Shown here: positions 3,001 to 50,600 of the stretch, one piece after another | How positions within the stretch are numbered: the first letter of the stretch is position 1 | Layout: each line of letters begins with the position of its first letter | NCBI GenBank assembly: GCA_903813345.2 | Contig: CAIIXF020000001.1 | Coordinates: forward strand, 27,590,001 to 27,654,000 | Direction of reading: 5' to 3' | Source of the DNA: Owenia fusiformis | Taxonomy: Eukaryota | DNA: 64,000 nt | Position numbers and translations under genes: made by a program | Notes under the pieces: generated by a model | Seen by the model: the letters and a program-made list of their open reading frames with translations, nothing else | Databases searched by the model: none | Told to the model about the DNA's origin: nothing

Positions 3001-4176
3001 TTGTTTGAAGAGCACCTACAAACTACACATGGTATTATAATATGTAGATTTTATTATTACACACTATTAACCCTTAAATGGTTTTTGAGGTCCCCATAGT
3101 TCATTCTTTGCAATAATTAATAATTATATCAGAAATAATCATTCTATCAACAGGAAATTCCATCTTATCCTCAATTAATCCAATTCCTTTCAGATAAAAC
3201 AAACCAAATGTAAATCGCATGATGACTTTTGTGCTACCTGAGACCACAGAACATCACTATCACCAAAAGATATTCAATTCATACAGGGTTATATACTAAC
3301 AACTACGAAATGATACAAAATGCTAAAACACCTGTACCCTTATGATAAGGTTTTCACATATTTTCTTGCATTCATGATAAATAATGCATACATATTCTAA
3401 AAGGTAATTGATTAAACTATGTAGAACTGAAGTCAGAATGAAAAAAGCTCCTCTGGTTGCAAAGTTATTGCGAAATACCCCAAAAACCTTGAGAGGGTAC
3501 AAAAAAAAGACCAATTAAGGTTTAACTTGCTCTATATGAGATAGGTAAAGGTGATGGGGTTCAGATGAGCAAATAACATCTTCTGCTGATATTAAACAAT
3601 CTAGCTGCTTATCCTTGAACATTTGAAATCAAAAATCATAACAGTAACAATAACAATAAGTGTTAAAGCTGATTGAGATGGAATTCCTGCCAAAAGAATA
3701 CTAAGTGCTTCAAAAAGAGTCAGTGATAATAGGCAGTCAAAAAGAATATGCTCTTTTAAATAGCCTGAACTGTAAATTTTTTATGGTAGGGATGAGGGGC
3801 ATTAGACATTGTTTCCCATTCACGTTGGATTATGGTATTGGATAGTTGGGGTTTGTTTTCCTTATGACTGGTCTACTCTTAAATTTCTTCTTTTTTCTGC
3901 TGGGTTCTGGAACAATTGGTCCTTTCTCTTTGACACTTTATAGGGTTATACAGAATGGAGAACTTGATAAGAAATATGAGACCAAAAAATGACCTCAATA
4001 ACAGTCGTAAAATTATCATTCATAAAATTATCATTCAAGGGTGTGACTGCTCGTTTAACAAATATTTGGAGACTTTTGACTAGTGATGTGAAGATATTCA
4101 CAGGTGACACAGCACATAGTAACAGGAGAGAAAAGCCAGCATAATTGCATCCAAGGTGTGTTATTATCACTTTAGA

Positions 4177-9871: not shown

Positions 9872-11160
9872 ACCTGGCTCAAGCAATAGCTAAAATCCCT
9901 CAATGTTCCCAAGATCAATGTAAATCCAGATTAATTATTATTTTCTGTTATACTCTGTAATTGCGACAGGCTTTAATAGCTATTAATGTCAGATCTGAGA
10001 TTCTCCGAAGTTTCACTAAGTATTATTGGCAGAGTGGCTAGTTGTAATTGTTTCAAAGGATTTCCTATATTTCACTCTCTATCACAAATCAACCTCTCCT
10101 CAATTAGTGAAGATGGATAGATTCGAAGCAGCTCTAGGTATTTTCATTTGTTCTTGGAAATGTTATCATATCTTCCCCTCTGGCTTCATTATACTGCATG
10201 CATGTTTCACTCTTATTCCCTTGTCTATTGAATAATGTGAAATTATTTTGTCATTTGACCAGTGGCATCCTATTATCTTTCATCATAAATAATTTTGTGC
10301 AATCTTGAAAATAATAAATTTAGTTAATTATCACACTGCTCTTTGTGAGCATAATTGTATCATTATGTGAGTTCTGGTCAAGATACTTAACGCGCCTTTA
10401 AGTCTTTTTACAGCAAAAAGTAAAAGTACATACAAGCTATCATCATCACCTGACAATTATTTACAATTATATAAATTGCAATGCAATATAACTCCAAAAT
10501 GTCAAAACTCCCTACAATTATTTGTTCAGTATGTTGTTCATTTATTACAAGGTTAATTAATATTTTTAGCCAAATAAGCATTGCTTTTTATGTTCATGTA
10601 GAGTATAGATATGGCCGTGAGAGTCGTACATGTAAAATTATTAATATAAAATTAATATAAATAAATATTGAGCCAATTAACACAAAACACAATACCTTGG
10701 AAAATAATGGCTAATTTAAGTTAATTAGCTACAAGAGTTTACACTTTGACATAACTGTTAATTAGCTCAATTGGATATATTATAATACCATCTCCAACTC
10801 ATCTTCTTGGGCGAAAATAAATCTCCAACTGGTGGTGTAAGCTGGGGAAGGAGGTGAGGGAAAAGAATCGAAATGTATAACTTACATTGATGTTAATGGA
10901 TTTTGTACGCACCTAGGGAGAAAACCCTCCAACTACAATCCTATCGATATCTCGTCTGAAGTCTCATCTCGTACTCTCGAGATCTGAAGCTTGATGTTTC
11001 GTTCAGTGTAACTTACCAGAAACATTTACCTGGGATAACCGGGGAATGGTCTTCTTAGGGCTTGTTCATACCTAAACCTTAACCGACTCTCACATTGCCA
11101 TAAATGAAATTATTGTCAATAATTTGAATATATCATCAATTAACTGTTGTTGGCAGGTCT

Positions 11161-13574: not shown

Positions 13575-16500
13575 GTTTACCGCACGAGGAAGGGTAAACA
13601 CACAGCAGTTGATGGTGTTTGTGTAGGTATCCCTCGGGGAGAGTGCTTTGGTCTTCTGGGGGTGAACGGAGCAGGGAAAACTACGATGTTCAAAATGTTG
13701 ACAGGGGATGTTCCTGTAACCAAGGGAGATGCGTATCTGGATAAACACAGGTGAGGTACCAGGTGTATGCATAGTGTATGCATATCCTGTCTTATTGTAT
13801 GAAGCCTATAAGTGTTATTCAGTAGGCCCCGAAGAGGAAGTCCATGACATGTCCATATTTTATACATATAATTATGTCTTCACTTCTATTTCAACATAAA
13901 GTACAAAAACATGTAGTAATTAAGAATGAACAGATCACAGAGTGATATTCAGTTTTTGACAATAGAATAATGTTATAGGTGTTGAGATAGCTTTCATTGA
14001 CTGTTATTGCATTTCTTTCACCCACTTTATTAATCATTACTATCCATTCATGCAGTTAAGTATCTTTGGCAGTGCCTGTGGCCATACTTACTGAAATTGA
14101 TGTTAATTTGAGAAATAACTGCTTTATCAACCAAGAAAGATGAAACTACTCAATGTTAGGTGCTGGATGGAAACTCACATAAAATATAGATTTTGCCAAC
14201 TGTTTCTATTCACCATACCTCTCTGTAAATATGTCTAGTAGAGAAAGAGCTAGAGAGAAGCTGTCCGTCTGTTCTTCCGTTTGTCTGATGAATGAATTTT
14301 CAATAATTTGGCTAGCCACTCAATTTAAAATGCCTGCTTTTTGCGAAAAATGTAATCTTTGATAACTCAAATACCAGTTTTGGTTTAAATTTTATATGCC
14401 AATGCCATATGGATATAGAAATCTGAAATAGATAGAAATATAAAAATTTTATATGCTGATGCATTCTGAGCATAGGACTCTGGTCAAGAAGAAATGCTGA
14501 ATTCAGAATGGCTGACATTTCTCATGAAAATTATGATTTTTCTGATAACACATGAAATACCAGTTCCAATTTTATATAAAACACGAATGCCTAATGGTCA
14601 AATGGTCAAGAAAGAATTTAATATATGGTGTCACGTCACATCATGGATGTCGATTTTTCCAAAAGGAGACAAAATCCAGTGTGATTCACTACTCCACGGA
14701 GTAACTAGTAACTAATAACAAATGTTTCTCATATTTACTCTCATGTTAACCAACTGAACTGATTGCCAACACATTCTGAGAAAATCTATAATATTCACAT
14801 TTGTGTCAATGACTCAATTTACAATGAAAAGGATTATCTTGGATAGTTTACAAACCAAAATAATATTTGTGCATTATGTATTGTGACCATCATGTAATGT
14901 TTAAAAGGATATTTGAAGAAACTAAATTAACTGTAGAAAAACATTGGTTCCTGTTCTTAGTAATTATGTTCAATTGATTTTTCATTTAAAACTAATGCAT
15001 GTACTTTGAATTAAAAAGTAATTGGAGACATTCCAAATATTGGGTTGTCTACAGATGCCAGTTTGAATATTGAATATTGGACAAGATCTATTCAAAAGTT
15101 TCTAAGTTCATTTTTGGATTGTATAATACATAGACCTTGATATTGGATAGTTTTTTTTTTACTTAGGCATGAATAATGTCAAAATGCAATGTCTTACAAG
15201 ACAACCAAGATTGCTACTTATTTATCTTCTTATTTCAATTATTCATGTACAGGGTATGTCAAAAAGTTGTTACTTTTTTGAGTCCCATCTGATTGTTACT
15301 GATTTTTTTATGCTTTCAGTATTCTAACAGAGATGACGTCAGTGCACCAAAGTCTTGGGTACTGTCCTCAATTTGACGCCCTTGACCCTTTACTAACTGG
15401 CGAAGAACATCTACAGTTTTATGCCAGACTGAGGGGCGTACCAGAGAAAGAAGTAACGACTGTAAGTCTGTGATTCTGTGATTCTAGTGCTCATTTCTCA
15501 AATGTATCGTATTTCTTTAAATTGTCAGTTCAGTAGTTTTACATTATGTGGATAAACAATTTGTTCATCTGTACGCTATTAATGGTTCTAATTGTTCCCA
15601 ATTGCACCACTGTCGTGATAGGTAAAGAGAGAGACAATTTAAGCCAATTGATCTATAGTGTGCTCAGTGTAATTCCAAACTGACAATGAAGAATGGTGAT
15701 GAGTACATAATGTAATATATTGCATACTCTTAATCCTATTAATAACATCATCAGATAATAAATATTGATTGCAAAATAATTTGCTAATTAATAAGTACAA
15801 TATATCATTTCCAGGTAGCAAAATGGTGCATACAGAAGCTAGGGCTAAGTGCTTATGCAAATAAATGCTCTGAAGACTATTCCGGAGGGAACAAACGTAA
15901 ACTGTCAACAGCGATATCTCTAGTTGGCAACCCACCTGTTGTGTTTCTCGTAAGTACATGTATGCCAAAGAAAACAGCATTTGTCCCATTTGTCCCACTG
16001 ATGTGCTAATATGTTTGTCAAATGGGGTATCAGGCCCGTTGCCAGGATTTGCCAAAGGGGGCTTCACTTTTTGAAAAATTCCAGGGAGGGTTCACTTTTG
16101 ACAATTTTGTTGCAAAAATGGCCAAAATCACTTTAAAAGTGCTCAGAAAGGTGAAAAACTGCATGATTTTGAAATAATTTTTTGGCCAGGGGGAGAAGTC
16201 TTCTAAACTTCTAAACTCTCTGCAATATTTGAACACAGAGTGATTTATTATAAAAACTATAAATTACTTTTTAATTACTTTAAAATTGTGAAATGACTGA
16301 TGATCTTAATGCAACTCTAGAAGGTACAAATAAATTAAATTATTCAATGCAAAATTATATTAGTTGACATAGAGCAGTATGGCAGGCTATATATGTTTCT
16401 ATAGTATAAATATGTAACTATATTGAGCATATTTTTATCCCATAGGATGAGCCTACAACTGGGATGGACCCTAAAGCTAGAAGGTTTCTCTGGAACTGCA

Positions 16501-19500: not shown

Positions 19501-22500
19501 GTAGTTGAAGAAGTTCTCCTAAAAATATAATCATATAATAAATATATATATATCATGGAAACCATACATTTATGTTGCCATAGAAACAACTTTGGTCTGT
19601 TAACGCAAGGCTTAATGAAATTATTGTTCATTTGGCAGAATATATATCCTAGTAGTTTACACTCTTTGTAGTTCACATTTGTATGAGCTACTATTATAGT
19701 ATATCTGACACATCTCTATTCTATAGTGATACTTTTACATTTGCTTGCAGAACGTGATATGTGATAGGCCCCAGAGTGATGGCACTCAGAAGACTGCATA
19801 TGATATCAAATAAAGCTTGAAAAACAGATAAGTAATACAGCATACTATGACTCTGTCATTTAAACAACAGATGAAGCTGTAAAGTTCTTAAACCAGTCTA
19901 TTTCAGTTCTCCTCAGTCCTTTGTGAAACTTCACCTATATAATTTTGAAGCTCATATGTGGGTTCTGATTCTTCTGGATCTGTCATAGCTGGCCTCATCA
20001 CATCAACAAGATCTTGTCGTAATATGTTTGATGTGCACCAGTCTAGTTCTAGTACACAAGATAAATTATTTTTCAACCCATTCCCTCTGGGAGATGAGAG
20101 TTCAGGCTTGAGTTGCACACAAACTCTTCAATTACAGCCTGTGTTCCAGTTGTAATATTTGTAGATGACCCAATACATTAATTGAATGCATCTTGGTATT
20201 TCTGGCTATTTCATAGCAGAGTTGGAGGCCTGGTTTTTCCTCGTTGAACAAATGCACTAACACAATAACAACCTGTGAGAATGGTGTATCATCAAGACTA
20301 GAAAATCTGTGTCTGGGGAATGTACAATAATGTTCTTTGACTGATCAAAACGTCTTCACATGTATTCATCTTGGTGTTTGCTTCTTCTTGTGTTGACAGT
20401 AGATTGTTATCAACATATATTTTATTGAATCTATGTATTTGATAGCTGTCAGTTAAGAAATCTACCCTCTCTGACTTCAGTGGTAGCATGTCAAACACTT
20501 GCTCTGCCAGTTCTTCAAATGTGGATAGACGCTGCACTAAGCTGTGATAGATAGCATTACCATCATATATGTAGAATGATTCATCTTTTGCTGGTCTTGA
20601 AGGATAATGTTGGAGATTCTCAAGAGTATTTGGGAGTGTTGCTTTTGCTGCCTTCGCTGGCAGACCATCAGGAGACCCTAGCGCCCATGGCACTGGACTA
20701 AGCGGATACTCTAAAACTTTCTTGTTCTCTTGAGATATAAGAACTAACTGTCAAAAAATATTCCTCTAAACTTGTTGTCAGATGTTTTCAGGATGTCCTT
20801 CTCGATTGTCACAAATGTCTTCACCTTTATTCTTTTCACTGGATCTTGAAAACTTTTGGTGTCACTCACAAGTCTTTATTCAAATTCCACCTTGCCTCTA
20901 GACCTGACATGCAGTAGGTCCTGATGATAGACAGTAGAGTTGATCATAGCATCTGTCTCAAAGGGGTCTAAAAAGTTACCTATTGCGGCCCTTGCTTTTG
21001 AAACACCTTCAGAGCCTGCTATGTTTACACAGTAGTAGGCATTTGAATTGGTGATAAATCCAATTACCCACACCCTAAGATTTCGCACTCTGATTGATAG
21101 TCTGTTCAGTGGTTTGATCAACTGGCAAATGTAGTGCAGGTACTTGGGACCTGTTAACACTAAACCCAAGGTCTCTCAATAGCCTTTCTTTCTCTTGGTT
21201 TGTATGCTTGAGGTTAGCAAGCATGACATATTGTGCTGTTAGATATATAGCATAGTTGGACTGGTCCATTGCGAAGAATAGTGGACATAGGTCTTGTTGT
21301 AGACACTAGACAGAGTAAGTGGAGGTCAAAATCATTCTCTGCTAGCTTGGATGAATCGTGATATTACATGACAATAACCTCTTGTGAGAGCATGGGGATT
21401 GGTAGCTGGCTGATAAACTTGTCTAACAAATTCCTTTGTAGCAACTCCAGGAAGATTTTGGGCACTCTGATTGATCTATTATAATGGTTTCCAGTTAGCA
21501 CACCTTCAAGAGATCCACTAGCATATATGCCAGCTTCAATGATGATCTCAGAGAAACCTTGAAACCAAAACCAATGAATCAATAGCCAGAAATACCAAGA
21601 TGCATTCAATTAATGTATTGGGTCATCTACAAATATTACAACTGAAACACAGGCTGTAATTGAAGAGTTTGTGTGCAACACAAGCCTGAACTCTCATCTC
21701 CCAGAGGCATTGGGTTGAAAAATAATTTATCTTGTGTACTAGAACTAGACTGGTGCACATCAAATATATTACGACAAGATCTTGTTGATGTGATGAAGCC
21801 AGCTATGACAGATCCGGAAGAGTCAGAACCCACATAGGAGCTTCAAAATTATATGGGTGAAGTTTCACAAAGGACTGAGGAGAAATGAAATAGACTGGTT
21901 TAAGAATTTTGCAGCTTCATCTGTTGGTTAAATGACAGGGTCATAGTATGCTGTACTACTTATCTCTTTTTCAAGCTTCATTTGATATCATATGCAGTCT
22001 TCTGAGTGCCATCACTCTGGGGCCTATCACATATCACTTTCTGCAAGCAAATGTAAAAGTATCACTATAGAATAGAGATGTGTCAGATATACTAGATTAT
22101 CCTACACTTAGTGTACTAAATGTATAATAACATGAAAAAATAAATTTGATATTTATTGGCAAAATGAATATCCGGAGGATATCGTTACGATATACTCCGG
22201 GCGGAGGATATCGTGACGATATACTCCGGAAAACCCAATATGCAGAGGATATTGTGACGATATACTCCGCTTGTTAATTTCCCGCCAAATTGACTCTATT
22301 TGGCATGAAATTCATTTTACAATGATATTATACATTCAGTACACTCCTTGTAAGTGTAGGATAATAAGAACATCCTATGATTTTTTTCAGAATATCATTT
22401 TAATCTACTCAGCGATATTGATATATGCACTCATTCGCTTCGCTCTCTCGTGCAGATATCAATATCACCTCGTAGATAAAAATGATATTCCTCAAAATCA

Positions 22501-31686: not shown

Positions 31687-32091
31687 CACGCGGTACTAAC
31701 TTCGACCGTTAATTTGAATTTTTGACCTACCGGATGTTCGAAAATCAAGGATTACGAGTCTCGTACTGCACCGTTTTTCTTCAAACTTGTTCCATTCAAA
31801 GCATATCAAAAATCCCTTTCTGTTGGTACATTATTCTCTTAAACAGAGTCCCTACTTCCAGCGGCATTTTGGGCCCCAGCTGTAAGAAGGCCTTCTAACC
31901 GCTGGGGACCAAAACGCTGCTAGAACGAGGGACTTTTTACAATAAAGTTATGCACCGACAGAAAGGCAATTTTGTTTTGCTTTTAATGGTATAAGTTTGA
32001 AAAACGGTGCAGTATGAGACTCGCAATCCTTGATTTTCGAGCATCTGGTAGGTGAAAAATTCAAATTAACGGTCGAAGTTAGGACCGCGTG
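31687..32091. mobile_element. Transib-type MITE
   Basis: CACGCGGT...ACCGCGTG termini, ~120-bp TIRs, 5-bp TSD AGAGA, internal palindrome at 31846-31936. Confidence 0.8.
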
Positions 32092-35876: not shown

Positions 35877-36406
35877 CACTGGCGACCCACTCGATTACGC
35901 TGGTTACCGAAACGGTTCGTTTTGGTAACAAAATGTCGGAACGTCGAAGGTACGATTTTTCTCATTTCTTTATTTCACACGTTGTAGGCAGAATTCCCAC
36001 GACATTTTGTATGAGTATCATATGTTTAAAAAAATGTACATACAATGTGCGAACAAATAGTTCAGAAGACAACAAAATCGTCGATTTAATTCTTCACTTA
36101 AGTTACATAAACGGTTTTTCGAAAAAAAGTTAAGATCTGCACTTTTAACCCAAACCGTTTATGTAACTTAAGTGAGGAATTAAATTGACGATATATTCTG
36201 TTGTCTTCTGAGCTATTTTTTCGGCAAACATGAACATTTTCTAAAACATATGATACTGATATACGTCTGTGAGAAAAAAGTCGTGGGGATTCTGCCTACA
36301 ACGCGTGGAATAAGGAAAAAAGAAAAATCGTACCTTCAACGTTCCGACATTTTGTTACCAAAACGAACCGTTTCGGTAACCAGCGTAATCGAGTGGATCA
36401 CCAGTG
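35877..36406. mobile_element. Transib-type foldback MITE
   Basis: CACTGG...CCAGTG termini, 5-bp TSD TATCT, nearly fully palindromic. Confidence 0.85.
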
Positions 36407-37100
36407 TATCTGTCAATCATCGCGAGTAGTTACAGAAACGAGAGTTCTGACACACCTATAACATGGAGTCCTATGGGGAGGGACACGATTTTTCATAGTA
36501 CCCTCCCTAACATGGGCTCCAATGGGGAGGGACATCTGTGAGCCTCCCTGAGCTCGGGAGGCACATACGGGGACCCCACCCCTCCCCCCCTCGGCGTGGT
36601 GGCGTGTACATATTTCGGGGATCTCGGCCCCTAGGGGTAACGGACGCCCTACCCCACGTCTGTACGTTTACTGTAAGGGATACTATTCGAATTCCCGCCA
36701 AAAATAAATCGATAAACCAGTACGCGTCGTAAATGTCACTACCTTATTTATAAAGTGCGGCCCAGGCGGATTATCGATTACCTATCAACCAGGCGTTTCG
36801 TACTCGCGAGGTCTTATCGTTTTAAGGTCATCCAGCTGTCAGTTTACGAAACAAATTACTCTGGACTGTACTTTAAAGTGCGGACCTAACTCGATAATCG
36901 ATTATCAATCAACCATCCATCAACTTTAATTAGTGTAACGTCCTTCATCGATTTAAGATCATACCGTTTTATGGATGTTATATTTGATTGTGATAAATAT
37001 TTATTTTGCCAATTCGTCAACACACTTCTTTTCAAAATACATCAAATAAATACATATTTACATTATAACATTCAAAATTCTTCATTGAATCAGACACAAG

Positions 37101-38202
37101 TTACAAAGGTATTAAATCGGAATCTTTAACCCACGAATCAAACTTTTTTGGCCAATATTGACAACGCACTAAATGTTCCCGTTGCCCTCGTCTTGTTCGT
37201 GTTTTCAAGATTTTTTCTACTTTCCAAATATCATCTTCATTCGCTTGTACTCTTTGAAGCTCCGATTGGTAAAAAGTACCCTTAATGTCTTCATTTTGAA
37301 AATCATTTAAACGATATAACGGGAGGCCCTGTCTAATGAAACGTTTCGCTACTTTAAAAATTTCCCCTGTCCAATGCTCGTTGTATTCTCTTGTAAAAAC
37401 ATGTCTCGACTGGGTAATTCTAACCAAAGCTCCAATGGGAAATTTAAATATATATTTAGACCTAGTTTTAACGACAGCTAATTTTGGGATAGTACATCCG
37501 CCACCAAATGGCCAGTTCATCGTCTTCAGTTACATTTTTAGGAGCCATCTTTATGCTCCTATGCCAGGTGGCGTTATAACTTTTAACAAAATTTTGCAAA
37601 TTGTCTATATATCTATAGTTCTGTTTATATGTCATGAACCTCATCATTTTCGTCTTCAATGTCTTTATAAGGCGCTCGGAAAAGTTGGCTTTGGGCGTAT
37701 TTTCCGTAACAAAATGGCGTACTCCCCATCGAGCCAGCAATGTCTGTACGACCCTCGCGCGAAATTCTTGACCTTTATCTGTTCTAATGACATCTGGTTG
37801 ACGCTGCCCTTCTTTGAAGATGTCATCAAAGGCCTCTGCAACAGCTTTACCCGTCTTGTTAGGTAGAGGCTTAACCCAGGCAAAACGGGACATGATGTCA
37901 ATGACGACTAGGATAAATTTCGTATTGTCATTCTCTGTTGACCAAGTAGACATATCCATGAGATCAGCATCCCATTGTTCATCAATATGTGAAACATATA
38001 CTTTATTCCGAGTAAATTGTCTCTTATAAGGTCTCTGTAGGCCATAAGCTTCTTGATTGTCCAGCCATTTCTTTATCTGATAACGGGACAGCTGGTATTT
38101 CCCATCATTTAGTACAGCTCTATAGAGTTTGTCTGGTCCAGCAAAGGCTCCAGAATTTCGACTGTCAAAGTATAATTTCTTTAGATAGTCTTGATATGCC
38201 AT
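37101..38202 (-). CDS. Polinton-type retroviral-like DDE integrase with C-terminal chromodomain (one frameshift near 37485)
   Basis: ORF 38202-37468 has WDADLMD, IRTDKGQEF and KANFSERLIKTLK (D-D33-E) plus YNATWHRSIKMAP. Overlapping ORF 37520-37101 has FPIGALVRI, WTGEIF, GTFYQSELQ and the chromo motif WKVEKILKTR..HLVR..WPKKFDSWV. Removing one A from CCCAAAATTA joins them. Confidence 0.9.
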
Positions 38203-38261
38203 CTTACACTGTCGGAATCTAACTCCTTAATGACGATCTCTCTTTAAATTGCTAATATTTA

Positions 38262-39857
38262 TCACTCAGTGCTTGATTCAACAGCCTCGTTTTCGGATTC
38301 ACTCTGTTCTTCCTCAGAACTACTTTCCTGGTCTGTATCCTCTATAAAGACCTCATCAAACTTGTGTTTGTTTTTTAAAAGTGTCTTCCTAATGGCTAAG
38401 TTCACAGAGACACCCCTCCTCATCATATTAATTATTGAATCAATTGTATTTCTGTGTAACGCATTGTCTTTTACATCAACCGTTAGCTTGACGAATTGTT
38501 TATATCCTTTCATAAATTCTTCCTTATTCTTCGACAATAGTTTATTATCTGCCTTTTCTACAGCCTCTGTCTTATCCATCCCTCTATCCATATACTCATC
38601 CACTTTACGTCGGTGGTCTTCCTCATTCTGTCTTAAAGACCACTTCTTTAAGAATGCAAATGTTTCATTTGCTTTCAAATCACCATCATCGTCATCAACG
38701 TCATTGTCTTTGTCTTGAGGAATCTTCTCCTCAATATTTTGGGTAGATTGGGTCCTCATCCTCTTGGGTAGTGGTCCCTGATCTTGACACCACTTTTTTA
38801 TATGCCTCTGTAAGTCGTGAATGCTATCAAATACTAAACCACAGTCATCACAGGATACCATGTTGTCTTCTCGAAATTCACGTTCCAAGTAAGGGTAGTT
38901 CTTAACATCACTACTATTTATAAATGTTGTCGTCGGAAAGTCGACTTCTGAAATACCCTGTCTTTCAAGTAAGTGTTTTGAATCATTCATTGGTTCCTTG
39001 AAGTTGCGGGAATCGTGATGAGTTTCAAATTCAACTTCACTTTTAGTAAAGGCATTTGGTTTCAATCTGCTGTGCTCCGAAGTTTCTTGCTTCAGATCAA
39101 GAAGCAGGTAACCATAGGGTCGACTAGTTGCGTTGGTATATGCTCTGACCAACTTGTTTCCATTTCCGGGGTACATCTGCCTCGATAAGAATGCCACCTG
39201 TTGGCGATCTCTCGCGTTATTAAACAGTATCATATAGTGAGAGTTTAAGCTCATCGATCTATTCATTTTTCCTTGATGATACATATTCTGGAGTAGGCAT
39301 ATCACAGACAGATTTCGATGGTGACTGCCTTTGCTATAGAGATCACATATCCGTTGATCATTTGTTGCCTCATTCATAAGATCATCGAGAAGCATCAAAG
39401 TAGGAACTGAAGTGTCAAGGTATCTTGAATCATCAATATCCTCTGGTATTCCCTTCACAAATTCCAAATGTGGGTATTTTCTTAGCTCTTCGTAGGCAGG
39501 CTGCCATTGACCATAACACCAGATGATTCTTCTAGGAATTGGGGATATATACCGTTCAACATTTTTGATCAAGTGCTTCATAAGCCAGGTCTTCCCCGAC
39601 GATGTTGGTCCGGCTGAAAATACAAAACAAAACAAAAAATATTTTTTAATAAATTGACATGCTCTCTTTCTATATTTAGAAACCTATCAGACTTTTAATT
39701 TCAACATGTCCATGCCTATACCTGCTATCATAGTAAACGGATGTTTCAGCATAACATCAGACTGATGCATTTTTTCTCCATGAAACTTATTCATATGCCT
39801 TGATAGGTTATCACCTCTCGTAAAATTCACACTACACTCAGAACAATTGAAAGACAT
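38262..39857 (-). CDS. C2H2-ZnF / A32-like (FtsK-HerA) Polinton packaging ATPase / ZnF / helical domain fusion, 2 exons, 495 aa
   Basis: Exon 1 39857-39722 (MSFNCSECSVNFTRGDNLSRHMNKFH...HPFTMIA), GT-AG intron 39721-39614, exon 2 39613-38262. Splicing restores HPFTMIAAGPTSSGKT (Walker A); Walker B LMLLDD; GSHHRNLSVI-LLQN and RPYGYLLLDL motifs; second finger CDDCGLVFDSIHDLQRHIKKWC; acidic tail. Confidence 0.9.
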
Positions 39858-39882
39858 GTTGTCTGTTCAAGATCTATCAGTA

Positions 39883-39950
39883 AAATGACTCAAAACATGG
39901 ACAACTTAAAATATATAAGAATATTCTAATGTGCAGTATTTTGATTGGTT
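39883..39950 (-). promoter_or_regulatory. Putative Pol II promoter of the ZnF-ATPase gene
   Basis: On the minus strand: CCAAT (~39948), TATATA (~39917) and Inr-like TCATTT (~39888), ~30 bp apart and upstream of the ATG at 39857. Confidence 0.45.
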
Positions 39951-40025
39951 CAAAATGTGTCAATTAAGATCAATTCTAAACATAAACAGGCATTTATGAC
40001 ATTATAAACTATTGAATATTAAAGT

Positions 40026-40562
40026 AAAGGGAGGGGACGAGGTTTGGAAGATGGAGAAGAGACAGGAGGAGGTTGGGTGGAAGTAGGAGGAGGTATGAGG
40101 TAAGGAGGAGGTAGGGAGGAGGTGGGAGGAGGTAAGGAAGAGGTTCGAGGAGGTAAGGAGGAGGTAATGATGAGGTAGGGAGGAGGTAGGAGGAGGTGGG
40201 AGGAGGTAAGGAGGAAGCGGGAGGAGGTAGAGAGGAGGTGGGAGAAGGTAAGGAAGAGGTAAGGAGGATATAGGGAGGAGGTAATGATGAGGTAGGGAGG
40301 AGGCGGGGGGAGGTAAGGAGGAGGTAAGGAGGAAGTGGGAGGAGGTAGGGAAAAGATGGCTAACTTCCGCTTTAAAACCTACCCAGGCCGACTAAAAGAT
40401 GCCTCACTTCCGCTATGATGTCACCCTCTTGCCCAGACAGATGCAAAATGGCTGACTTCCTGCTAGAAAGCTTCAAAATGGCCGACTTCCGGTTAAATGG
40501 CTGACTTCCGGGCTGACTTCCGGTCAAGTGGCTGACTTTCTGTCAAAATGGCTAACTTCCGG
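40026..40562. repeat. Subterminal purine-rich (GGAGGAGGTA)n tract followed by an AAAATGGCTGACTTCCG motif array
   Basis: ~325 bp of GGA/GGT repeats (40026-40350), then ~8 copies of (AAAAT)GGCYRACTTCC (40354-40562) abutting the right TIR. Confidence 0.85.
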
Positions 40563-40620
40563 AACGTATAGTCGTGGGGTAGGGCGTCCGTTACCCCTAG
40601 GGGCCGAGATCCCCGAAATA

Positions 40621-42559
40621 CCAGGTCGTTCAATAAGTTCTCATAATTTTGCTCTCATTTTAAGAGTTTTTTATATTTTTCCATGAAAATTTCACAGACG
40701 ATGCAGAATGTATCTGTGTAACAACCCTGCAAAAATTAAGTTTTAATTCTAATGGTCGTGAAAATGGCGGTTGTTATAGTAACATGAAAAATGGGTAGGC
40801 GGGGCAGATTATTTGACGTCATAGTGGCATATAATTCAGTTCAACATTGTGGAGAGTAACAAGTGTTTTAATGTCATGTAGTCCCATTTATCCCATGAAA
40901 TAGTATGGGGTAAATGTTTCTATTCCTACTTTAAATGCTCAAAATAATGTCCATTGGATGCGACACACTTTCGATGACGTTCTACCCAATCCTGGAAGAT
41001 TTTATGGAATCCATCAGGAAATCTAGCTCTGAGAGCATTTTGGACTGCATTCTGCAAATCTTCTGTCGATGCAAATCGAAAACCTCTCAGCTCATCTTTC
41101 ATTCGGCCAAACACGCCAAAGTCGCATGGGGCTTCATCAGGTGAATATGGTGCCTGTGGGAGAACTTCCATTCCGAGTTCTCCTATGGTGTTCAGTACAA
41201 GTTCTGCCCGGTGACACGGGGCATTATCCTGATGAAATATTCTTGTCGCCAACTCTAGGAGGGGGCGTTTCTTTGAGAAGGCCCGTTTGAGATGCCTCTT
41301 GAGAACCTGAAATAGTCAGTAGGATAGGATACTAATGCCTTTAACATTTGTACTTAACCATTTTTATAGTTCAAATCTGATTTTAAATTTGATTTGATTT
41401 AATGTTTTTACTCTTATATTGATTAATTTATTAATAATGAATAAGCTTACCATTGCATAATAGTCCTTGTTTATTCTCTGACCATCAGGAATTGCATGCG
41501 TAAGCAGCACCCCAGAGCTATCCAAAAACACAATGAACATCACCTTGCCGTCATTTTTGGTCAGTTTTGCCAGGGTTGAAATGGGAGTAGGTGAGTTCTT
41601 AGTTCTCCAACCACTTGATGCTCTCTTCCCAAGGGGCTCATAATAGCTGACGTACACCTCGTCGCATGTGATAATTCGTTGAAGAAAACTATCCCCTTCA
41701 TCTTGGTATCGTCTTAGAAATTCTTGGGAAACCTCAACTCTGCGGGCTCTCTGGTCACTAGTTAACTCCTTTGGCACCCATTTAGCACACATGAGGTTCA
41801 TTTTAAGCTTCTCTTTCAGAATGAAGTGTGTTCTACCTATACTAATGTTCACATTCTCACTAAGTTCCCGTACAGAGATGCGGCGATCATCATCTAGAAC
41901 TGTCTTAACTCTTTCAACAGCCTTTGGGCTGGTGACTTTTACCGGTCTGCCAGTCCGTTTTTCATCCATCACAGATTTTCTTCCCTCTGAACCAAACCTT
42001 TGATACCATTGGTATATGGTAGGTGTGCTCATTAACTCCTTTCCATAAATATCTTGAACTGCTTTTATTGTTTCTCCTCTTGATTTCTTGGATAACACAC
42101 AAAATCTTATCACACTACGGATTTGAATTTGAATTTCATCTTGACTTTTCACAAGACCACAGTCAGCTGCCATCTTGGGTCTCTCTATTGAAACCTTTTC
42201 TGTGATGTCATACCTTTTTATGTGATGTCACAGTAATAACTATACTCAGAAAAGTTGCATCTTTCACACTGATGTCAAAACCTGTTTCTATGGTTGCAAA
42301 TCTTTCAGATAAAACATATGACATTTCAAGATGAAATCTAACTACATCCATGGATTTTACGATCAAATAAAGTTGCCCCGCCTACCGATTTTTGACGTTA
42401 CTATAGCAACCGCCATTTCCACAACCATTAGAATTAATACATAATCTTTGCAGAGTTGTTACACAGATACATTCTGCATCGTCTGTGAAATTTTCATGGA
42501 AAAATATAAAAAACTCTTAAAATGAGAGCAAAATTATGAGAACTTATTGAACGACCTGG
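40621..42559 (-). mobile_element. Mariner (DD34D) transposon, apparently intact, inserted in the Polinton right TIR
   Basis: TA|CCAGGTCGTTCAATAAGTTCTC...GAGAACTTATTGAACGACCTGG|TA; ~190-bp TIRs; the left Polinton TIR shows the empty site with a single TA. Confidence 0.95.
40926..42173 (-). CDS. Mariner transposase, 2 exons, 367 aa
   Basis: Exon 1 42173-41451, phase-0 intron GTAAGC...TTTCAG 41450-41307, exon 2 41306-40926. Motifs: HTH region with TGRP, WVPKEL, ITCDE, HQDNAPCH, YSPDEAPCDF (D34D). Confidence 0.93.
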
Positions 42560-44591
42560 TATGTACACGCCACCACGCCGAGGGGGGAGGGGTGGGGTCC
42601 CCGTATGTGCCTCCCGAGCTCAGGGAGGCTCACAGATGTCCCTCCCCATTGGAGCCCATGTTAGGGAGGGTACTATGAAAAATCGTGTCCCTCCCCATAG
42701 GACTCCATGTTATAGGTGTGTCAGAACTCTCGTTTCTGTAACTACTATCGCGCACTTTGATGTTCCACTTTATCAATGGTTTGTGGTTTACATTTTTCGA
42801 GTGTTTTATACTTTCCTAGGACTATCTTCTGTGATTTTTCAATGGTCAAAAATATTGTCGAGAGTGGGGCAAAACGGCCCATGGGTGGGGCAAAACGGCC
42901 CACCCTCTGTTACATGGGTTTTAAAACCAAAATTAATCAATTACAAGACTCGTCCACACACATAATATCTCAGACGTTCAAACCTTTGACAGATAAAGTA
43001 TTCTTAACCCCTACCATAATTCTAGTCATTCGATATGTGTCGGAAGGAATTAAGGTACAAGCCAAATGTTAAAATCGTTATATTTGAAAACCAATTGCTC
43101 TTGCACAATAAGATTTTTGTATGTTATAACATGTGTGGGCCATTTTGCCCCAAAGACATGTGAATTTTCAAATAGACCTCTTAATTTGCCTAATAGTTGA
43201 AGCTTGAAATTTTTACAAATAAAAAATAAATGTGCATACTCTATGTAAAATGTTAAATCAGAATCAAAACGATATTCTATCATTTTGTTGCCGGATTTTT
43301 TTAGAGATTCTCGTGGGAGGGGTTATTTACAAAAAGAGGGTGAAAAGTAGAATTACCTCTAAAGCGAGACGCTGCTTGGTTATAATGGGCGGTCGAGAAG
43401 GTGGCAGAAATTTCAAAATTCGATTATGTGACTTTTGAAGAACCATCTTTTTATAGGTTCAAAAGATATTTCGATAGGCCACTTTGCCCCAGACGGCCGT
43501 TTTGCCCAATGTTCCCCTAGTACTTGAATCATGACAATATAACATCGTTAAATTCGTTTAAATTAGAAATGCTCTCGGTTTGGAATTTGATTTTACAATA
43601 AAGCTGTAATTTGTGCATTTAGATCGCTTTTGTTACATTGACGTAAGTCCGTCAAAGTAACATAAGTTACATTGGTAATATAACGGGGTTTCGTCAATGC
43701 AACAAAAGCGAGAGGCTCAGTATATGAATTACAGCTTCACGATTTACAAAACAAATTCCAAATCAAGAAACTTATTAAAACTAGGCTATTTTCTAGCTTT
43801 GGGCCAAATTATAATCTGCAACTTGACTTATTAGGTTTAAATCGAGAAGCCAAAAATTCGTAACCATTCCGTCAAAGTAACTAAGAAAAATTCGGTATAA
43901 CCTCAAGTTCGGTAGCCTACAATGCGCGTCGGTATAATGGGTTTCGGAAGACTATAATGCGCGGACTCCCTTTTGCCAAGGGGAAACGAACTCCCGTGCA
44001 GTGATATATCTATACCGAGACACTGCATAGGAGTTCGAAGGGGAAATTCACGTTTCGTAAAAACATATACAAGGGTTCACATTTAACCATTTTGGTCCAA
44101 ACTTAAATCATTACTTGAAAAGTAGTCAGAATAATGGAAAACTGATTTTGAAAGAATTTTTGTCGGAGTGGGAGGGTTTGCTCGCCTCACTGACTTGTTA
44201 TATTCACCTCCGCCGGGCCATGCCCGGCCCTGGTCAGTCACAGGCCTGACACTATAGTCTAGTACTGAAATACAATAAATCAATCAATCTTACTCTTCTA
44301 AGGTAAGTCAACTTTACTGAACAAATTGAGACTAGTAAGTTACAGTGAGGCCAGAGATGGTTATATATAATAGCACCCCCCCCCCCCCCCCCCCGGGGAC
44401 CCCCCCCCAGCTCAAGAGTGCCAGAAAAAAATTGAGTGAAACTTGAGACCTATGTCAAGGGTTGAAAAAAATTCAAAAATTATTTTGGAGTACCAGTTGC
44501 TTTTACATTATACATATTTGTACACAAAGCTGTTCAAACATGTAAAGGAGGAATAAACAATTAGTCATTTCCTTTCGTTTCATGATGCACA

Positions 44592-44697: not shown

Positions 44698-47600
44698 ATG
44701 CCACCAAAGAAAAGAACTGGCGGTGATCCAGGGTCTGGAACTCAACAGAAGCGCAGAAGAAAAAAGAAAGCGACAAACGGTGATGCAGAAGACGATTCCG
44801 AAGAAGAGAACAATGGCAACAATTCTGGCGGGGAATATGAAGAAGAAGACGGTCAAGGAGATGCACAAGTTGTGAGTTTCATGTGTTATCATGTTTAGAT
44901 GATTTCATTTTATGATTTCCTGATCAATTTGGTACCAAATATAATGTACTTTTTTCCAGTATAGTTGTTGGGCCTTTTGTTTGTCTTTTCTTCCTTTATT
45001 GTTGTTGATGGCTTTTCAAAACATTGATTCTCAGCCAGAACTCTTCAAGTATAAATATGAGAAGATACAAGAATATGACCCTTGCGACAGTTGAATCAAC
45101 CGAAATGAAAAGCCCCCCCCCTAGTATGTATCCAACAGACCGAATATAATATTCGGTCTGTTATGATTGATATATTTCCTGTGGAAATCGCGGTGATATT
45201 TTTTGCACATAAATTTCTCGTTTATTACAAGAATGTTCACCTTGAAAATTGGTGAATATGTTGAAGAGATGTTCATCTTAAACTAGAAGCAAAAATATTT
45301 GTATAAGGCGGGTACAAGTTGATATAAAATAATGAAATGTTCAGACTCACCAAAACTTCAGGATGTGTTCATAAGTAGATCGCGAAATCAATGTCAAGGA
45401 CGTTTGAGTTCACGAGATCCAAACGAGATATGCAAATTTTTGAACTTTGACAACACACCACTTGATTACCTCGGCCTTCTTCATGAATATTTCCGCTCTA
45501 TTTACTATAAATGACGAAAATTAATCGGGATAATGATAACAAATGACTAGATCTAATAAATTCCCGCACAAATGGAATTAATCAATACGCTTCCGTAATG
45601 TTGCTCCGTCCGCTCCACGTGTTATTTGTTTACAAATAGACTGACGTCACTGGCTAAATCTCGTTCATCGTGAGAATTGGCATTGCCAAAATGGCTTGAC
45701 CAAATCAATGGCTTCGCTACAAGAAGCGTCTGTACATTTTATGAATATCTTCAGTAAGAGGACAATATACGAAAAAATAATATTGTAAGTTCTTTATAAG
45801 GTAATCATTTTATCATTAAACAAACTTATTTGTAACATTTATATAACACCACATTTTACAATAGGTGACTTACAGTCTGAATTTATTCAGACGAAGGATA
45901 CAGTCTACCCCCCCCCCCCCCCCTCTCAGCGTACCAAAGAGAAGCCGAAAAATTACTGTCCCGCTCCGTAATCTTTATATCTCACCTCATATCTCATATT
46001 CATTGAAGTTTTACACATAATACAGATAATAGATATCTTATTGAGCAATTAAAGTCCATTTCACTGCTTCATTTCGTCAGTAGAACGGCAAAAATAAGAA
46101 ATTGGGAGACCATTGTGCAATAATATATGGAAAAGTATATTCATAATGTACATGAATGACATTTGTATATCTTGGATTGCTTCTAGTTTGGCTTATAAAG
46201 TGTGTGGCCTCTTATATTTGGATGTTTCTCTGCCATGTTATTTTCAATAAGATTAACATGGCTGATATTCTTCAAATTACAAGACGGCACAGGCTTATTG
46301 CACAAAAAACTAAAAAATCTGAAATATACAAATCCCCCATTATTTAATTATCATTGATATGATTAAATGTCAATGTTACTAATTCTTTTTTTGTGTTCCA
46401 TACCTGGCTTTTGAACTTCTGCACTTTCCAGATATACAGTGTCCCAAAGTATGCCCCCCCCCCTAGGCAGACATATACCAATGTCTCCATAGTATGTGTC
46501 ATATATCATTTTTAAGGCTTATCCAAAGTTACATTGATTTGCCAAATATGATGGTTCAAATGGTAAAAAGTAACAGTTACAGGCATTTCAAAAATTAGCG
46601 TTTTGTCAAAAAGATCAGTATCCTGGAAACAGCCCTGACCCTGTGACAGAAAATATGGATGCCATTCTCGAAGATAGGATGGCTATTGAGTTCTAAAAAG
46701 ATGACGTTTAGGGTAGATACTCCAAGGAAACTCTTCTTATGCCTTAAAAGGTTCCATGAGGATTACAAAATGCCATATCCCTATTTGAAGCCTGTTTAAG
46801 GTCATATATGGAAAGTATTGCTGCTGTTAACATGGCGGCTAAGGAGACACACCGACTATTGTTTTGGTGTAAAACTGACTTTAATTTTGGCCAAACACTA
46901 ACTTTTGTATTCCTGTAACTTTTTCCATTTGTGAGTTGAACCATGATACTCGGCAAATTAATAAAACTTTGGATGAGCTTTAAAATGATATATGACACAT
47001 ACTATGGAGACATTGGTATATGTCTGCCTAGGGGGCCCATACTTACGGGACACCCTATAGCATAAATTTTGAAAGTCATCTTGCTAGTATAGATCTCTCC
47101 ATGAACTCCTTGAGATTATTAAAATTCATAAAAGTGCAACTAAACATAACGTAACGTACCGACGCCGAGTGGCCAAAAAGGTCGGAAGATATCACGCCAT
47201 GGTCACATATTAATCACCATATTAACACTTTCATAAAATAAAATAGCATTCAACGAAAAAATCACGTTTACCTGTTTATCTGTACTAGGGATACAGGAGC
47301 ATGTTCGTTGAACATCACTTGTTACGCATAAAAAAACCCTTAATGCATTTTTGAAATTAAATCATTGCAATGTTTAATATTATAACTCATGAATTTCAAT
47401 TACAGGGACAACATACACTGTGAGTTGACAACGTACATTTCTGATTTTTTAAATTATACCAAATTCATGAATATTTATTAAATCGTAACCCGTCTTAAAT
47501 TGTGCAGTTTAGAGAAACACATTCTCATTAAAATATTCGACACTCCAAGACGTCATGGGAGAAAATTATCAAAGGAAATGTGTAAAAAACAACATTTTTC

Positions 47601-50600
47601 CAACCGAACAATTGTATGGGTAGACGTACAACGAAAAAAATCGAGCACTGCTCGAAGATCTTTTAACGTAATTAGAAAAATAAATGTCTTTGAAATCGAA
47701 TACACGCGAAATCAAACAGGAAATCCTTTTTGTATTCCTCAAATTTATTTAACTTTCAGATAATTGAGGGATCTAAAGTGACTGGAGAGGTATTATTCTC
47801 AGGAGCCTCCAACTGGGATATGGTTGGAAGAAGCAAGTTGCCCAAAGATGGTAAGCCATGATCTGTTTTCTCGACATTATTCAAGCATAACAATAATGAA
47901 AATTAATTCAAATGTATTTGTGACCATTTTTAAGCCCCAGTCACATTTGCTCTGTGGCCTTACGGTGGCCATAGCTTCACAAAATCGATATAGAAAATCA
48001 ACATCATACTGCTTATCCCTATATTGTATGCTGCATAATTCTCTCAATATTGGGAGGCTACAACCGCCTTATGGTTGCTGTTGATCAAATGTGAATTAGG
48101 CATTAATTAACTAAGCGACCATTGATAATAAATCAGATCATACGTGGTCAGCATTTAAATGAGAAAAATTAAGGTAATTTTTGTATAATTTCAGCCAAGA
48201 ATGGTGGCGGTCCTAACTTATGGGCACCTCATAGGATTGCTAGTTTAACTGGTGTGAAGGTGCGCTCCATAATTACTGGATGCTTAGCATGTCACAATCT
48301 GATAATTACAGCCGAGGGCAAAGTTTATAGCTGGGGTAGGTAGAACCTTAGAAATCAATCAGTACACTAATACTTTTAGTATGATGATATACAGTCTACG
48401 ATACATGTATTTCACTCCTATAATGTTGAATGCATCGTAAATGATATGCCATAAACTTACCTACGCCTTATCAGGATGACATGTTTAAATTTTTTGCATA
48501 ACCTTGGGATACTTCTGATTTTTCATGTCTCCGGTTTGACCAATGGTGAAATTGCTAACTTGGCTGTGATGTGTTGATAATATTCAATATTTACTTGTCA
48601 GTGCATATAGCAAAGTTCTCGCAATTCAGAGTTGAACTTCAAGTGAATGTAATTTTAGGTCGTAACGACAAAGGCCAGCTAGGCCATGGTGATACAAAGC
48701 GTCGAGACATTCCCACAATAATCGAGTCTCTCAAGGACGAAAACATAATCAGCGCAGCTGTTGGTAAAAATCACACTCTAATTTTAAATGGTAAGTCTAT
48801 TATTATCTTTCTGCGTGTTGTTTTACAAAGAAAGAATGGTTTAGGAATTAAGGATATAGTGAAGCCCTCCATCTGTCAAGAAGATAACTTGAATACGAGT
48901 TCATGGATTTTCTTCATATTTGGTGGAAAGATATATATTAGACAAGACAAGATGGCCACCACATGGCAGGAATTTCAGCCAAAGTAATAAACATTACTTT
49001 GGGAGTCTGGAAACAGGAATTTTGTCAATTTTGAGATCTTTCTGAAGTACAGTTTTATTATACTCAAAATAAAGGTTATTAAGAGTATTGCAAATATTTT
49101 ATAATTTTTCTGATTGTAGCCATGGAAAATTCAAAATGGCTATCTAATGTGGGATTTCGCAATAGATTCCTGAGATCTTCAAAGAATGGTTATATTACAA
49201 CCGAAAGATTTTCAGAGTAGATCACAATTATGATATTGTTTTTCTGATTCGTGCCTCAAGAATTCACAATGACATTACATTACATTAGATCTCAAATATT
49301 GTCTTTATGATTTGAGCCCTTGAAATCCTAAATTGTCACTCAGATGCTTAAATTGATGGAAATTCTGATATATCCCCCAATGTCTGTCTTTGATTATCTG
49401 CATATCAAGGGTAGAGTAGATGATACATACATGCACTACATTTTGTTAAATAAACATTCATGAATATAAATGTGGCTACTCAGTGGAGTTGCCACTTTCT
49501 AGATTACGATGATTCGCAAAACTTGTTATATCTGGCTAAATACGTTATTATCTGGTTTTGATCTTTGCTTTTTTGCTCTTATATCGAACCCATGGAATTG
49601 CATTGAGAAATGAGTAGTCCAAATAAAAATAAATTCTGTTTCAAATAGTTAAACCCCAATAGCACGGGGTACCATCGAATAATTTTGGCAACATACCGGA
49701 GAACGACATTTTACTAAGAAATGGCAATAATTTAGCACAATATATTTTTTAACTAGAGTTCTACTTTGATTTTGACAAAAGTAAGTATTCCATGCAATGG
49801 CTATTTCATTCATGAGTTTGTAGGAATTCTGTTGGAACCCAGTTCTGATCAAGTACGAAGTTATTGAAATCGGCGCAGTCGGACTTTACTCCGAAAGATG
49901 GTTTTTCGCTTATAACTTTTTACAACATTTAAGTATAGACTTTTGAAAAAAGTACAGAATAGTCCTTATACTATTGAATAATTCTGTTATTTTTGATTCA
50001 CACGACTCTGATTTGTTTAATTTAAAAAAAGTTTTAAAAATATTACTTAGGAACGTAACCGGAGCTGGGAACGTAACCGGAGCAGATAAGTTGAATTATA
50101 TCATTTAAAAAATAAAATATATGATTTAAAGCATATATATTAATAAATACGCATTCGAACAATCCCGTATGTTTTTAAATTAGTATATGTGCTTTAAATC
50201 ATATATTTTAATTTTTTGATTAAATAATTCAACTGATCTGCTCCGGTTACGTTCCCAGCTCCGGTTACGTTCCTAAGTAATATTTTTAAAACTTTTTTTT
50301 TAATTAAACAAATCAGAGTCGTGTGAATCAGAAATAACAGAATTATTCAAAAGTATAAGGACTATTCTGTACTTTTTTCAAAAGTCTATACTTAAATGTT
50401 GTGAAAAGTTATAATCGAAAAACCATCTTTCGGAGTAAAGTCCGTCTGCGCCGATTTCAATAACTTCGTACTTGATCAGAACTGGGTTCCAACAGAATTC
50501 CTACAAACTCATGAATGAAATAGTTATTGCATGGAATACTTACTTTTGTCAAAATCAAAATAGAACTCTAGTTAAAAAATATATTGTGCTAAATTATTGC

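Follow-up and report, generated by a model that had tools for sequence, protein, structure and literature searches.

A Polinton-type ATPase with a zinc finger on each side in a reduced element of Owenia fusiformis

Polinton/Maverick ATPases have been treated as plain packaging motors, and short derivatives that hold an ATPase and an integrase between perfect ends raise the question of what role the ATPase may have once the capsid genes are gone. Here, we have analyzed such a derivative in Owenia fusiformis, within a stretch of 64 kilobases (kb) referred to as the window (assembly GCA_903813345.2, contig CAIIXF020000001.1, positions 27,590,001 to 27,654,000; all positions below are those of the window). 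The gene in question lies on the minus strand, and its product is an ATPase of the A32/IVa2 branch of FtsK-HerA, of the Polinton/Maverick packaging type, with one zinc finger before the core and another after it. Its counterparts form a large conserved subfamily with fingers and a regulator-like module. On the strength of analogy, and with moderate confidence, we take the product to be an adenovirus-IVa2-like, DNA-recognising long-form ATPase in a reduced Polinton derivative that would rely on full-length relatives.

Gene structure and the intron before Walker A

The first exon of genes of this kind is overlooked by callers of open reading frames (ORFs). The parts of the window gene are as follows.

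39722-39857, minus strand: exon 1, with the start codon, a C2H2 finger and HPFTMIA (letters, Pfam and homologue profile)
39780-39845, minus strand: the exon-1 C2H2 finger (pattern and Pfam zf-C2H2)
39614-39721, minus strand: GT-AG phase-1 intron of 108 nucleotides (nt) with a pyrimidine tract (read from the letters)
38262-39613, minus strand: exon 2, from Walker A to the stop (translation and homologues)
39588-39611, minus strand: Walker A, GPTSSGKT, directly after the acceptor
39381-39398, minus strand: Walker B, LMLLDD (translation)

The ATG at 39857 opens a stretch of 45 codons in which a finger of the form C-x2-C-x12-H-x4-H is followed by KHPFTMIA. Exon 1 ends at 39722 with ...atg ata gca g, the donor GTATAG comes next, and the acceptor is a T-rich tract ending in CAG at 39614, with exon 2 running from 39613. 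An Ala codon is split at the join, which gives phase 1, and Walker A follows directly. Read without splicing, the frame meets a stop inside the intron and the product ends at 56 amino acids (aa). No ATG is present between that stop and Walker A; thus, a working P-loop needs the splice. The spliced span from the H of HPFT to the T of GKT is 16 residues, the same as in homologues whose motif is continuous. A profile built from the N-terminal part of 38 homologues was scanned against 2,133 window ORFs of at least 20 aa, and its top match was the exon-1 ORF (39690-39866, minus strand; E 1.5e-9), aligned in two pieces: the finger, and 'vlkHPFTMI', which stops at the donor. The finger also fits the pattern C-x2-4-C-x12-H-x3-5-H and is matched by Pfam zf-C2H2 with E 3.1e-5, its 24.6 bits being below the cutoff of 25.2. 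A preliminary description, made from the sequence alone, had proposed both a 108-bp GT-AG intron just before Walker A and the in-frame joining of an N-terminal C2H2 finger. Borders, frame, spacing and the exon-1 profile match agree on the intron, the exon-1 reading and the profile bear out the finger, and the gene structure can be regarded as established. Sequence and homology thus support splicing well, and the intron is presumably spliced in vivo.

A protein search gave 486 homologues at E<=1e-3, and the best 120 of the 486 were used for all architecture counts. HPFT...GK[TS] lies within one ORF in 93 of these 120; the other 27 begin downstream and are uninformative. In two related metagenomic loci (L001 and L002), a clean GT-AG intron of phase 1 interrupts the Gly codon of G|K, 6 codons downstream of the window site. 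The different sites imply that introns arose at least twice around the P-loop, and by this comparison of sequences the window intron is lineage-specific.

RNA was examined in three raw runs bearing the same species label, about 6-12% of each being read, at 1-6x depth. Each gave 48-75 reads, mostly 90-99% alike, which points to several copies as their source. Sense-strand reads cover exon 2 and the integrase gene next to it in all three runs. In two runs the plus strand carries nearly all first mates, as expected of minus-strand RNA in the usual kind of stranded library, and here the depth drops from 3.5-3.7 in the final bin of exon 2 to zero in that of the intron. Other observations speak against removal of the intron, and with it against the reading that we prefer: exon 1 also has zero depth in both stranded runs, intron reads of both strands occur in the third run, and no junction read is listed in the three runs. 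Of the transcript across 39722/39613 expected from the preliminary description, the exon-2 side is thus seen in sense reads, but the junction is not, in the 6-12% of data covered.

These results bear on another explanation, according to which the 108 nt are a gene-killing insertion rather than an intron, and finger and ATPase are no longer made in one product. The lack of a listed junction read would fit it, as would the other damage in this copy (a broken integrase frame and a nested mariner, described below), the unbroken site in 93 of the 120 homologues and the donor itself, GTATAG being weak relative to the usual consensus. However, the exact GT...AG borders with their long pyrimidine tract restore the frame and the 16-residue spacing, the 108 nt are not a window repeat (no second copy was found elsewhere in the window), the introns of L001 and L002 indicate that introns do arise in this gene, and depth drops to zero at the exon-2 border in both stranded runs. 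We consider such an insertion very improbable.

The ATPase, its added domains and their distribution

The exon-2 product was modelled with AlphaFold2 from a 44-row alignment, with a mean predicted local distance difference test (pLDDT) score of 75. Residues are numbered in the exon-2 translation, and all parts are on the minus strand.

Residues 1-193, minus strand: ATPase core (AlphaFold2, pLDDT about 90)
Residues 194-249, minus strand: disordered linker (AlphaFold2)
38787-38852, residues 254-275, minus strand: second zinc finger, C-x2-C-x12-H-x4-C (translation, pattern)
Residues 279-312, minus strand: acidic disordered stretch (AlphaFold2)
38343-38681, residues 311-423, minus strand: conserved seven-helix domain of 113 residues (pLDDT 93-98)

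None of the 22 residues that are invariant in the 44-sequence alignment is missing from the window copy, and these include Walker A and Walker B; G6, K7 and D76 are invariant and D77 is nearly so. Pfam Pox_A32 matches 39 of the 44 aligned homologues and Adeno_IVa2 matches 16. The top Foldseek matches of the ATPase model are the B204 packaging nucleoside triphosphatases of STIV2/STIV (E 5.5e-4), which make up the nine best rows and 11 of the 12 rows listed first. These three lines of evidence place the ATPase in the branch named above, and the earlier view of a Polinton-type ATPase carrying a finger on each side is upheld. A packaging role of the long form is assumed here from homology.

The second finger is modelled within residues 250-278 as two short strands and a helix. 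It is present after the ATPase as had been described, and it is of the C2HC type rather than C2H2. The helical domain of about 110 aa and the acidic tail noted earlier were also recovered: the tail closes the modelled exon-2 product, and the domain, modelled by itself, has a pLDDT of 88. Its fold matches none that was found, since no Foldseek match at E<=0.001 could be obtained and the top VIA match (Z 7.2 over about 62 residues) is in the chance range for helical models. A search of the ESM Atlas picked up the finger alone and not the helical domain, neither the protein nor the profile found more than generic fingers and P-loops among PDB sequences, and a PHROGs search gave nothing useful. 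The predicted complex of the integrase core with the helical domain scored 0.10 against a mark of 0.34, which is evidence neither way.

Many homologues, including scallop and pearl oyster proteins, span 93-100% of the query at 31-39% identity. By strict patterns, the C2HC finger follows the core in 84 of the 120, the N-terminal C2H2 finger is found in 45, and 26 have both. The idea that the fusion is peculiar to the window gene has to be abandoned in the face of these counts, with annotated bivalve proteins among them: the fusion occurs widely and is common in marine invertebrate DNA. The preliminary description had also considered that fusion and intron might both be routine in this lineage, which holds for the fusion but not for the intron, the motif being unbroken in 93 of 120. 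Some homologues bear host zinc-finger names, for example 'zinc finger homeobox protein 4-like', and a search for longer proteins gave only one match above 786 aa, a chimeric kinesin gene model.

The longer form and the canonical short form, which has no fingers, are largely separated in a quick maximum-likelihood tree of 120 of 168 rows after near-duplicate removal, where support comes from the Shimodaira-Hasegawa-like approximate likelihood ratio test (SH-aLRT) only. A canonical short-form clade has an SH-aLRT support of 99, with 33 of its 35 rows being short forms, and 36 of the 37 short forms are in the half opposite the window protein. A branch of support 88 sets apart 54 of the 57 C2HC forms together with the window protein, which is on a long branch; on the window's side as a whole, 54 of 63 rows have the C2HC finger. 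Matches to the C-terminal module were confined to long-form ORFs, and no canonical locus yielded one.

The flanking parts also occur as a protein of their own. A search with the helical domain gave 101 cluster representatives, many of them fragments. Among the 99 new representatives, 12 are complete proteins (200-295 aa) in which a C2H2 finger is connected by a long acidic linker to the helical domain. An ATPase segment is missing altogether from 11 of them, and one, P0127, also retains the second finger. Stand-alone members include P0127, P0146 and P0155, and one stand-alone protein from starfish is annotated as yeast-adherence-regulator-like. The profile of the 12 finds 77 proteins at E<=1e-5, and it aligns with the long-form profile at an hhalign probability of 99.9% (E 2.4e-31). 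Comparison of hidden Markov models relates the stand-alone finger to exon 1 (E about 3e-8) and the helical part to the C-terminal domain (E 1e-26). A search of IMG/VR with a single stand-alone protein gave no match. Since the stand-alone family matches both flanks, the long form looks like the small module protein with an ATPase core and second finger placed inside it, or the small protein may have arisen in reverse by loss; the sequences allow either direction.

In full-text searches, no description of an ATPase-finger fusion was found, although supplementary files may list such genes. Gene and element are each of a known kind, and the architecture does not seem to have been described before. 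The passages concerned in published work mention separate zinc-finger genes in algal Polinton-like viruses (PMC9356565), a C2H2 protein in Mavirus (PMC3671162) and bivalve genomes as the richest in Polinton-like regions (a 2026 preprint).

The carrier element and related loci

The gene lies in a mobile element with the following parts.

36419-36424: left target-site duplication ATCGCG, 6 bp (read from the letters)
36425-36668, plus strand: left terminal inverted repeat, which opens AGTAGTTACAG (inverted-repeat pairs)
37000-37005, minus strand: candidate AATAAA polyadenylation signal, about 96 nt past the integrase stop (by eye)
37101-37529, minus strand: C-terminal frame of the integrase with a chromodomain, in another frame than the core (Pfam Chromo/Tudor-knot, tblastn to related integrases)
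37468-38202, minus strand: N-terminal part and rve core of the integrase, ATG at 38202 (Pfam rve, E 3.1e-11)
40064-40351: pyrimidine/purine-rich minisatellite with periods 11, 21 and 32, between gene and array
40354-40562, minus strand: subterminal array of GGAAGT[CT][AG]GCC units, at one element end only
40563-40620, minus strand: right terminal inverted repeat, inner part (inverted-repeat pair)
40621-42559, minus strand: mariner-type element nested in the right inverted repeat, with a TA duplication and 189-nt inverted ends of 95% identity
42560-42746, minus strand: right terminal inverted repeat, outer part, which closes ...CTGTAACTACT (inverted-repeat pairs)
42747-42752: right target-site duplication ATCGCG, 6 bp (read from the letters)

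The element extends over 36425-42746 (6.3 kb, or about 4.4 kb without the nested mariner). Its inverted ends are 244 nt long, the outer 165 nt are 100% identical, and both termini read AGTAGT. For intact vertebrate Mavericks, the relevant passages of PMC8097293 give 6-bp duplications, (AG)3 or (AGT)2 end motifs and intronless genes; the duplication, inverted repeats and AGTAGT termini of the window element match these Maverick marks. The carrier is a reduced Polinton derivative that retains the ATPase and the integrase only. ORFs of at least 110 aa within it comprise the ATPase, the integrase, the mariner, three overlapping frames over the 40002-40391 repeat tract and two antisense frames. By the ORF list, space for a gene of about 1150 aa (the polymerase size) is missing, and no ORF remains for a capsid or maturation protease, for which no profile search was made. 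Two other identities were rejected. A host-domesticated gene is opposed by the intact inverted repeats, the target duplication and the reads from several diverged copies, and a Ginger-type transposon does not agree with the Polinton hallmarks, the ends and duplications of Ginger elements being different from those here.

The ATPase lies upstream of the integrase, and 59 nt separate its stop codon (38262-38264) from the integrase ATG. The rve core keeps the invariant acidic residues of the integrase alignment, and near-full-length core matches to the integrases of related loci have 33-42% identity. The integrase frame changes once, at about 37455-37490, between the rve core and the chromodomain. 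An intron at this point was rejected, since the extra length relative to loci L064 and L021 is far too short. Contigs and reads of other copies vary in length at the break, which assigns it to the window copy or a subset of copies. The nested mariner has its transposase in two ORFs (41364-42227, with HTH_48 and Transposase_1, and 40926-41315). With its integrase frame broken and a mariner in one end, the window copy is probably defective. Contig word depth in DNA run X7 is about 35-47 over the 3' part of the integrase (37050-37740) and about 9.5 over the ATPase (38040-39155). The integrase end may be part of a larger family. GGAAGT[CT][AG]GCC has six exact matches, all within the subterminal array, against 0.04 expected; comparable arrays were not found upstream of the long-form genes in L001, L002, L004, L006 and L009.

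Related loci, numbered here with L, came from a metagenome scan with the ATPase (80 loci) and from IMG/VR (one canonical locus). Their ATPases are 44-51% identical to that of the window over about 170-200 residues of the best tblastn segment. The longer loci hold an ORF of about 1150 aa with family-B polymerase motifs, a stand-alone ATPase, an integrase with rve and chromodomain, and further ORFs. The canonical ATPase is about 210 aa long (ORFs of 204-276 codons from stop to stop), starting before HPFT and ending past the core, and none of the 21 canonical short-ATPase ORFs has fingers, which agrees with the earlier statement that Polinton ATPases are normally stand-alone. Of the 35 loci that extend for 1.5 kb or more beyond the ATPase match, 29 have an integrase downstream on the same strand; it is absent downstream, despite the room, in L005, L006, L010, L012, L014 and L033, and it lies upstream of the ATPase in L002 and L062. 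This conserved order identifies the window pair as the Polinton ATPase-integrase block.

Other short elements with a long-form ATPase are represented by L001 and by L005/L006. L001 (1-4242) is enclosed by 251-nt inverted repeats of 97% identity; its genes are an intron-bearing long-form ATPase, a basic ORF and one ORF with CARD+RING, and an integrase is absent. L005 and L006 have 2.2 kb in common at 98% around the long-form ATPase. A piece of 147 nt that lies upstream in L006 reappears downstream in L005 in inverted orientation, a hint of inverted ends that would bound a unit of about 3 kb. Fingered ATPases adjoin TBP-like genes (L006, L012), PC4-like genes (L005, L010) and a BIR gene (L010). 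Host-like genes of transcription and apoptosis recur here as a set.

Such neighbors raise the possibility that the long form is a transcription regulator, serving the element or a helper, which took up an ATPase domain and acts as a promoter activator or repressor rather than as a packaging enzyme. The TBP-like, PC4-like, BIR and CARD-RING genes beside fingered ATPases would fit this, and so would the occurrence of the finger-acidic-helical module alone in 77 proteins; a finger followed by an acidic linker is, moreover, the usual layout of an activator. L006 points the same way: a canonical short ATPase (3093-3770, 43% identical to a canonical ATPase) lies about 950 nt from its long form, a hint that packaging may not be the task of the long form. 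In addition, adenovirus IVa2 is itself described as a promoter activator (in the text concerned of PMC5033970). On the other side, Walker A, Walker B and the other invariant ATPase residues are conserved across long forms, which indicates that ATP turnover matters, and the ATPase retains its canonical position beside the integrase. We regard this explanation as unlikely.

The close pairing of the two genes bears on a further possibility, proposed by analogy with MuB, TnsC and IstB, in which the ATPase would be a transposition helper acting for the integrase on ends or target choice, and the 4.4-kb element would be self-sufficient in a cut-and-paste-like manner. In favor of this, the element retains no genes other than these two, its ends are intact, the 6-bp duplication is perfect and 165 nt of the repeat are 100% identical; the two genes also lie close together in long-form elements (59 nt in the window, overlapping ORFs in L009, adjacent and reversed in L002). 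However, the fold is FtsK-HerA/A32-like and not the AAA+ of the bacterial helpers, and L001 is bounded by inverted repeats and has a long-form ATPase with no integrase. Polinton integration is also thought to need a copy made by the polymerase. Such a helper seems to us quite unlikely. We are just as doubtful of its fuller version, a minimal self-sufficient mobile unit whose finger-guided FtsK/HerA ATPase was retooled from packaging to assist the integrase. If it were true, eukaryotes would have an equivalent of the ATPase-plus-DDE pairs known from Mu, Tn7 and IS21, and the finger-acidic-helical module would be an adaptor that also circulates as a separate gene.

Elsewhere in the window, a 464-codon ORF at 8495-9889 has a rhodopsin-family seven-transmembrane receptor domain (E 1.6e-17) and is presumably a host gene, and an ORF with an RCC1 repeat at 48559-48987 (E 9.2e-12) is probably a host-gene exon. 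A palindrome with arms of 93-119 nt (31687-32091), an inverted repeat with 132-nt arms of 92% identity (35877-36406) and a pair of 58-nt arms of 98% identity 461 nt apart (46459-47035) look like small foldback elements or elements of the miniature inverted-repeat transposable kind. Two minus-strand ORFs of 150 codons each (15639-16091 and 20298-20750), about 4.7 kb apart and with no Pfam match, may be copies of one repeat.

Proposed role of the long-form ATPase and comparison with known systems

In the reading that we prefer, that of a DNA-recognising long-form ATPase, the core would be set within a small, DNA-binding, regulator-like module, with the C2H2 finger before it and the C2HC finger, acidic linker and helical domain after it. 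Removal of the single phase-1 intron would join the first strand, HPFTMIA, to Walker A. Through its fingers the ATPase would most likely be able to recognise the DNA of its own element, as suggested by IVa2, and this recognition could serve genome recognition, activation of the element's own transcription or both. The preliminary description had named recognition of the element's ends, a repurposed regulator or a dominant negative against a helper virus as candidate roles. The reduced two-gene element would depend on full-length relatives for replication and for any capsid. DNA binding, its target sites and the dependence on a helper are all proposed here.

Besides the RNA results and the two ATPases of L006, several points weigh against this reading. 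The window exon-2 protein alone has no Pfam match to Pox_A32 or Adeno_IVa2 at E<=0.01. One finger reads about 3 bases, and specificity would need multimers or partners. The sole repeat array is at one element end, and its core, (C)CGGAAGT, resembles a host ETS-family site; the array may be an ordinary promoter or enhancer for host factors and not a target of the fingers. Among the loci collected, none was found that joins a long-form ATPase with polymerase or capsid genes. Finally, close copies differ by 4 synonymous and 8 non-synonymous changes among the 12 listed, a ratio that gives no sign of constraint among recent copies.

Comparison with known systems shows where the long form stands. 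It shares with the canonical Polinton/Maverick ATPase the same domain, the neighboring integrase with rve and chromodomain and the hallmarks of the element, whereas the canonical protein is a fingerless one of about 210 aa and the window gene has two fingers, an acidic-helical module and an intron. The B204 protein of STIV/STIV2 is the top structural match of the core, with a template modelling score on the target of about 0.52-0.57; however, this archaeal virus protein of about 200 aa has no added domains, and the identity is 12-14%. Non-autonomous Polinton copies resemble the window element in having Polinton ends and a 6-bp duplication and in lacking polymerase and capsid genes, whereas the window element retains a specific pair of ATPase and integrase with the ATPase motifs intact. 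The likeness to MuB, TnsC and IstB is one of layout only, in that a small mobile element holds an ATPase gene next to a DDE/rve recombinase: the ATPase appears to be of another fold class without sequence relation to them, and none of them is among the fold matches or PDB sequence matches listed, although they may lie beyond these lists.

In adenovirus IVa2, according to the part of PMC5033970 that deals with it, a bipartite DNA-binding domain flanks the core; the protein binds to repeats close to one end of the genome and is an activator of the major late promoter. It belongs to the same ATPase branch as the window protein, and in both the core is flanked by DNA-binding regions, putative ones in the window protein. 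On the other hand, zinc fingers are lacking in IVa2, as is a homologue of the helical domain, and it acts in a virus that forms a capsid. The parallel with IVa2 may offer a starting point for understanding how an element of this kind recognises DNA of its own.

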